NCBI RefSeq assembly: GCF_003334255.1 | Contig: NZ_QOWU01000156.1 | Length of the DNA stretch: 1,486 bases | Source of the DNA: Escherichia coli | GTDB taxonomy: Bacteria > Pseudomonadota > Gammaproteobacteria > Enterobacterales > Enterobacteriaceae | Direction: 5' to 3' (one strand) | In this document: positions 1 to 341 of the stretch, piece after piece | Layout: each line of letters begins with the position of its first letter | How positions within the stretch are numbered: position 1 is the stretch's first letter | Made by a program: the position numbers and the translations under genes | The notes under the pieces: generated by a model | Told to the model about the DNA's origin: nothing | Seen by the model: the letters and a program-made list of their open reading frames with translations, nothing else | The model's database searches: none

Positions 1-341
1 CGGTGAACACTTACTGGCGACGCCGTGGCAGCACATATTTTGTATCAAAAGCCGGGGAGCGTTATCGCCGGGCAGTGGCGCTTATTGTTCGCCAGCAGCG
101 GCTGAAATTAAGCCTGTCCGGAAGGTTGGCAATAAAAATTATTGCAGAACCACCGGATAAGCGCCGCCGTGACCCGGACAATATTCTGAAAGCGCCGCTG
201 GATGCGCTGACGCATGCGGGGTTGCTAATGGACGATGAGCAGTTTGATGAAATCAATATCGTTCGTGCTCAGCCAGTATCTGGTGGACGTCTGGGGGTGA
301 AGATTTACCCCATAATGCTTGAAGGGCAGGTCAAAAAATGA
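1..341 (+). CDS. rusA: Holliday-junction resolvase RusA (crossover junction endodeoxyribonuclease), 5'-truncated by the window edge; reading frame is that of position 3, stop TGA at 339-341
   Basis: The frame-3 translation (...DKRRRDPDNILKAPLDALTHAGLLMDDEQFDEINIVRAQPVSGGRLGVKI...) aligns along its length with E. coli RusA as I recall it (...[50 protein letters not shown]...), including the acidic catalytic residues in the D-x-D and DD motifs. The listed GTG at 3-5 is probably internal; roughly a dozen N-terminal codons lie upstream of the window. The position immediately upstream of Q matches the nin region of lambdoid phages. Confidence 0.85.
   Translation, partial: VNTYWRRRGSTYFVSKAGERYRRAVALIVRQQRLKLSLSGRLAIKIIAEPPDKRRRDPDNILKAPLDALTHAGLLMDDEQFDEINIVRAQPVSGGRLGVKIYPIMLEGQVKK

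Follow-up and report, generated by a model that had tools for sequence, protein, structure and literature searches.

The window, that is the whole stretch of 1,486 nt analysed here, carries the 3′ part of a rusA gene followed on the same strand by a lambda-type Q gene, and the ATGA in which they meet is the true junction of the two genes within an operon of the delayed-early (nin-like) kind in a lambdoid E. coli prophage (Table 1). By direct reading of the letters, positions 331-344 are tcaaaaaATGAaac, with tcaaaaaATGA at 331-341, and the bases shared by the Q start and the rusA stop are T339 and G340. The list of open reading frames contains one plus-strand frame closing at 341 and a second one at 338-1159 (273 aa), and in E. 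coli chromosomes 100% identical to the window PGAP/RefSeq places rusA at 5961-6341 and the "antitermination protein" at 6338-7159 (numbering of the chromosomal locus L001), hence with the same boundaries. Sequence, frame list and PGAP boundaries all confirm the two-base overlap between Q start and rusA stop that the initial annotation had claimed. Precisely, two real same-strand genes share two bases, which makes them a co-directional overlapping pair of the -4 (NTGA) class. Since the Q frame is closed by the TGA at 320-322, ATG338 is the sole start that keeps the conserved N-terminus; alternative Q start codons were ruled out by this TGA and by the N-terminal alignment with lambda Q.

Table 1. 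Features of the rusA-Q junction and of the flanking regions (positions in the window)
Feature	Position	Strand	Basis or remark
rusA, 3′ part (RusA-family Holliday-junction resolvase, 126 aa)	1-341	+	phrog_34, 1Q8R alignment, PGAP CDS
In-frame TGA of the Q frame	320-322	+	read from sequence; closes the Q frame upstream
Shine-Dalgarno-like element AAGGGCAGGT in the rusA tail	322-331	+	duplex with 16S 3′ end, -8.2 kcal/mol
A6 run	333-338	+	spacer, two last rusA Lys codons and first base of the Q ATG
ATGA junction	338-341	+	Q ATG 338-340 overlaps rusA TGA 339-341, -4 spacing
Q, lambda-type late-gene antiterminator, 273 aa	338-1159	+	PF03589 (twice), DnaJ_CXXCXGXG, 7UBM, phrog_127
Lambda PR′-like putative late promoter region	1165-1207	+	alignment with lambda, SfV, phi80 and SEN22
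Intrinsic-terminator-like hairpin CCCGCC-GCCT-GGCGGG followed by T6	1242-1263	+	terminator scan; aligns with annotated putative terminator of SfV

The tetramer in itself is not informative. ATGA occurs 10 times on the two strands of the window, against 12.2 ± 3.1 expected from shuffles, so no enrichment over shuffled sequence was found in the window and the question becomes whether both frames are real genes. What is not due to chance is the location of this ATGA at two real gene ends, together with its recurrence across the Q-lambda family.

As regards the upstream gene, its ORF matches the PHROG family phrog_34 (RusA-like resolvase) with E=1.5e-47, and full-length RusA, taken from an identical chromosome, aligns with residues 6-114 of E. 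coli RusA (PDB 1Q8R) with E=9e-21. This alignment spans query residues 7-115 of 126 and the acidic motifs RRRDxDN and DDxQ are conserved; by profile match and acidic motifs, the protein belongs to the RusA family of Holliday-junction resolvases. The NCBIfam "exception" model for K-12 RusA gives 66 bits, below its cutoff of 200, and we therefore considered the protein as a member of the RusA family and not as the exact K-12 protein. The rusA start lies 40 nt upstream of the window, and the GTG at position 3 was rejected as a start, being a window-edge artefact. The final 11 codons of rusA (YPIMLEGQVKK) are outside the conserved RusA core and hold the ribosome-binding region of Q.

The downstream gene is matched twice by the Pfam profile Antiterm PF03589 (1e-26 and 6e-22) and by phrog_127 ("anti-termination protein Q-like") at 3e-111. 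Aligned with lambda Q (PDB 7UBM), its product pairs residue 1 with residue 1 (MKLEDLPKYYSPKSP against MRLESVAKFHSPKSP, E=2.9e-39), which, with the PF03589 profile and full-length similarity to lambda Q, places it in the Q-lambda family. The names rusA and Q of the initial annotation are thus correct by phrog_34 and 1Q8R, by PF03589 and 7UBM, and by PGAP. The 7UBM alignment covers Q residues 1-113 and 183-273; between them, residues 114-182 (window 677-883) form an insertion of 69 aa that lambda Q lacks. With it the CxxC motifs number four (CPCC, CPEC, CKDC and CQRC), three of them with a DnaJ-type GxG, against two in lambda Q, and the Pfam profile DnaJ_CXXCXGXG matches at 3.6e-05; the additional CxxC motifs suggest a second zinc site in this Q.

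Prophages in several E. coli chromosomes match the window with 100% identity, and 2,476 of 5,426 complete E. coli genomes contain 80% or more of it. In the identical chromosome L001 the TAA of a hypothetical gene is separated by one base from the GTG of a DUF968 gene (TAAcGTG, 4898-4904, gap 1), and the TAA of this latter abuts the rusA ATG (TAAATG, 5958-5963, gap 0). Because these two junctions are nearly seamless and are followed by ATGA, the last four genes of the operon make an unbroken translated chain.

Downstream from Q, TTGATT (1165-1170), TAAATT (1187-1192) and AACGATGGG (1199-1207) align with the -35 element, the -10 element and the early transcribed region of lambda PR′, respectively, and phi80 has a pR′ and Q-site annotation at the equivalent position. 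A consensus promoter scan of the window made no call at this PR′-like region. The strong, GC-rich terminator-like hairpin stands where a terminator overridden by Q would be, only about 45 nt past the PR′-like pause element (TAAATT, AACGATGGG), and the distance between promoter and hairpin implies a putative constitutive leader transcript much shorter than lambda 6S RNA. Taken with the upstream genes, the region looks like a complete Q module closing a delayed-early operon. Window positions 1386-1486 are the start of a 65-aa hypothetical gene (L001 7386-7583; phrog_331, 1.3e-15), located where lambda has orf-64. It is followed in L001 by genes for a DNA methyltransferase, tRNA-Ile, tRNA-Arg and a nanS-like esterase and by lysis genes, a layout of the Stx-phage late region type, without stx. 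A search for CII boxes (TTGCN6TTGC), which would mark a paQ-like antisense promoter, gave 2 one-mismatch matches against 2.2 expected; a link of this kind between Q and the lysis decision was rejected, the matches being at chance level. An Rfam search of the whole window at a permissive threshold returned only a sub-threshold chance match (ar14, E=0.2), hence no known RNA at the junction.

The SD-like element AAGGGCAGGU lies within rusA and is separated from the Q ATG by a spacer of 6 nt, a suitable distance for coupling. Paired with the 16S 3′ end, it ranks among the top 5.5% of the 19-nt windows of this sequence, and other Q-lambda starts have similar values (-6 to -8 kcal/mol); we rated the element as moderate because the duplex requires a bulge. 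Among 13 distinct contexts from close relatives, 12 retain the CAGG core and the remaining one has CTGG. The A6 run is broken in some relatives (AACAAATGA, AATAAATGA, AAAGAATGA). As for RNA structure, the unpaired probability is 0.98-1.00 at 334-338, and both 334-338 and 342-343 are more than 97% unpaired. No significant structure was found in the 141-nt junction segment (z=+0.85, 158 of 200 shuffles folding as well), and it takes 5.5 kcal/mol to open 324-343, where windows along the sequence average 9.7 ± 3.6, which makes the Q initiation region more accessible than 87% of them. Neither shuffle folding nor opening energy, therefore, revealed a hairpin masking the Q start. Independent initiation of Q is plausible on this basis, given its own SD-like element and accessible start.

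We surveyed 322 Q-lambda-family loci, obtained from scans of viral contigs with this Q and with the Q proteins of lambda, phi80 and SEN22, and from annotated phages. The survey is redundant (four query types, the best 80 matches of each) and the choice of upstream ORF favoured those with 30 aa or more that end at -4 or -1, which slightly biases it towards those classes; so read, the nearest upstream ORF among the matches listed ends at -4 (ATGA) in 252 loci, at -1 (TAATG) in 60 and otherwise in 10. Among the 200 distinct 130-nt junction contexts of the matches listed, the corresponding counts are 143, 48 and 9. The upstream proteins of the matches listed represent 14 unrelated families, including RusA, NinH, NinI, NinZ and YlcG-like proteins, and -4 spacing is used in 12 of the 14. 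A stop/start overlap is hence found at 97% of the Q-lambda loci listed, whereas about 35% of neighbouring junctions are -4 (13 of 37 other co-directional junctions in ten annotated loci, hand count).

Q begins with ATGA in 319 of the 322 loci listed, the second codon being AAx or AGx. The A of ATGA is thus set by the second codon of Q, and its conservation is not evidence for coupling. In the three loci in which Q starts with ATGC (ATGCGC) the upstream ORF continues to a stop 19 nt inside Q, so it is the TGA within ATGA that terminates the upstream gene. Some lineages do without the overlap: in two close relatives (L036 and L041) a GAA>TAA change in the rusA tail, 14-16 nt before the Q ATG (window 321-323), stops rusA and leaves a 14-nt gap to Q, and the gap before Q is +13 nt in SfV and +27 nt in Pm34. 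The overlap is therefore dispensable in at least some lineages and, from the sequences compared, is preferred at Q, not indispensable. L036 and L041 offer a ready natural control for coupling. All in all, the Q junction is unusually consistent, yet it is an instance of the commonest prokaryotic spacing motif.

Two observations touch on the boundary itself. The lambda record has a misc_recomb feature at lambda 43884-43885 (L002 3885-3886), lying one or two bases ahead of the Q ATG, and in the survey upstream genes of the NinZ type stand in front of two different Q types, the join being precisely at ATGA; together they suggest module exchange right at the Q junction. Moreover, four phages have an annotated "gap" of 111-133 nt before Q: HK225 (L083, 1064-1201), vB_EhrS_49 (L084, 1074-1223), FSL SP-016 (L086, 1065-1211) and phi80 (L088, 1085-1201). 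Each gap holds an unannotated ORF of 38-49 aa ending at -1, -11 or -23 with respect to the start of Q, which is YlcG-like (...RILRNFVRIY...) in the first three and different in phi80 (MTRDEITRYQAESVKRA...).

The closest known parallel is ninI/Q of lambda, where the same ATGA overlap stands at 43886-43889 (NinI 43224-43889, Q 43886-44509; the sequence reads ...cagggagaaggcgcATGAgactc). In both cases Q is of the PF03589 family, with N-termini that align one to one, the SD lies within the tail of the upstream gene, and the junction ends a chain of tightly linked delayed-early genes. Kroger and Hobom reportedly described the lambda ninR region in 1982 as a "chain of interlinked genes", and the -4 overlap is said to have been known since then. 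The two junctions differ in the upstream gene (rusA here, the ninI phosphatase in lambda), in the SD, which is weaker and interrupted here (AAGGGCAGG versus GGAGAAGG in lambda), in the 69-aa insertion with additional CxxC motifs that this Q has relative to lambda Q, and in the surroundings, since none of nine other upstream junctions of this prophage is -4 (hand count from annotation). Klebsiella phage GZ7 and HK225 likewise have rusA shortly before a Q-lambda-family gene, with ATGA or TAATG overlaps as the links, but a YlcG-type ORF of 45-46 aa stands between rusA and Q and gives the overlap, whereas here rusA overlaps Q directly. Our literature search found no published test of translational coupling at any Q junction. 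A CRISPRi study of lambda reported that knockdown of nin genes is transcriptionally polar on Q and is rescued by a Q plasmid, which is a matter different from ninI-Q coupling, and a dCas13d study of lambda knocked down only gene O.

Spacing of -4 is by far the commonest between adjacent genes (PMC12548453). With reporters and mRNA quantification, Huber et al. (2019) found that four of five native E. coli -4 pairs (hyfHI, astDB, ydbH/ynbE as well as menDH) are coupled by termination-reinitiation, mostly in an SD-dependent way, while bioBF is uncoupled; the dependence on the SD ranged among the tested pairs from none to essential, and the authors proposed that local structure blocks de novo initiation at -4 sites (PMC6728339). 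The initial annotation is right that an ATGA arrangement is typical of translational coupling, with which -4 overlaps have classically been linked. The rusA-Q pair has in common with them the -4 ATGA, an SD upstream within the first gene and the E. coli translation machinery; it differs in being known from sequence alone and in having no predicted local structure.

We consider partial coupling as the best explanation, with a probability of about 0.65: reinitiation on Q by ribosomes finishing rusA would add to de novo initiation of Q. It appears likeliest because Q has its own SD-like element and no masking hairpin. A ribosome halting at UGA 339-341 would sit straight over AUG 338-340, and a fraction of the ribosomes that terminate on rusA may reinitiate on Q, aided by the SD-like AAGGGCAGGU 6 nt upstream. 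Free 30S subunits probably also initiate Q on their own, since neither the SD-like element nor the A-rich start region is structured. Coupling would then act as a boost in step with ribosome flow along the operon, and not as an on/off switch. Its benefits would probably be generic ones, namely gap-free translation through DUF968-TAAATG-rusA-ATGA-Q, which may limit Rho-dependent polarity, and a compact genome.

The same accessible start and SD-like element are also what one would expect if the overlap were a passive by-product, Q being functionally uncoupled and translated wholly from its own SD; this is the main rival explanation, which we regard as possible but rather doubtful. Such an overlap would be cheap to obtain, since three of the four bases come with the start codon, the second codon of Q begins with A and mosaic recombination occurs at gene boundaries; we are equally hesitant about this origin. 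Several results fit the by-product explanation: the second codon AAx/AGx explains ATGA at 319 of the 322 Q starts listed, one NinZ-type upstream gene is joined to two Q types at ATGA, variants exist with gaps of +14, +13 and +27 nt, bioBF is a -4 pair without coupling (PMC6728339), and a review ascribes the abundance of -4 spacing to its ease of evolution (PMC12548453). However, a random upstream frame would meet the TGA in no more than a third of cases, whereas 97% of the listed Q-lambda loci overlap, against about 35% of -4 at neighbouring junctions, and four of the five assayed E. coli -4 pairs are coupled (PMC6728339). A more far-reaching idea, which we hold only tentatively and with somewhat less credence than the by-product, is that ATGA or TAATG with an internal SD is a selected, portable "docking" junction that ties Q translation to the delayed-early ribosome flow. 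It would cover, with the same low credence, any recombined upstream module, be it RusA, NinI, NinH, NinZ, YlcG or at least seven other families. If this were true, translation, in addition to N-type antitermination, would fix the Q dosage and with it the start of late transcription.

The remaining mechanisms fare much worse. Coupling by RNA unfolding is established for some -4 pairs, and in phage f1, where gene VII/IX shows the same stop/start overlap in a phage operon, a long hairpin masks the start of gene IX (PMC12548453). An obligatory coupling of this type would have the Q start hidden in a hairpin with rusA sequence, but no such structure is predicted at rusA-Q: the 141-nt region folds no better than its shuffles, the start is almost wholly unpaired and easily opened, and no sequestering by upstream coding sequence was found, so that we consider this mechanism very improbable. 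In fact, the lack of structure counts against RNA unfolding and fits termination-reinitiation and independent initiation alike. Obligatory dependence of Q on rusA translation is, from these predictions, unlikely. Even less probable, and in our judgement close to negligible, is a programmed -1 slippage of tRNA-Lys from AAA 336-338 to AAA 335-337, which would give a RusA-Q fusion (...GQVKK-MKLEDL...). The A6 run does stand immediately before a slow UGA, with Q in the -1 frame, but in close relatives the run is not intact (AACAAATGA, AATAAATGA, AAAGAATGA), no stimulatory structure follows downstream, and the slippery run is absent from other Q-lambda junctions.

With partial coupling as the preferred reading, the idea in the initial annotation that the junction would tie Q translation to ribosomes finishing rusA may reasonably be assumed by default at any -4 junction, but as worded there it is probably overstated. 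An effect of the junction on the timing or level of Q, and through it on the lysis decision, is speculation, and a dedicated lysis-timing device is not indicated.

The rusA-Q overlap is real but ordinary, because it is the commonest bacterial junction and the usual link of a lambda-type Q to its upstream neighbour; it is already known in kind and in lambda itself. Overlap at 97% of the listed loci across 14 upstream families illustrates the principle described for lambda in 1982, and not a new one. What the finding does is to fix the Q start and the rusA end in a widespread E. coli prophage module, with Q as the final link of a tightly chained operon. Should rusA and Q indeed be coupled, a nonsense or frameshift mutation in rusA, a non-essential gene, could reduce Q and, with it, late-gene expression, which in related phages includes the expression of Shiga toxin, and this would bear on the engineering or the interpretation of such prophages.
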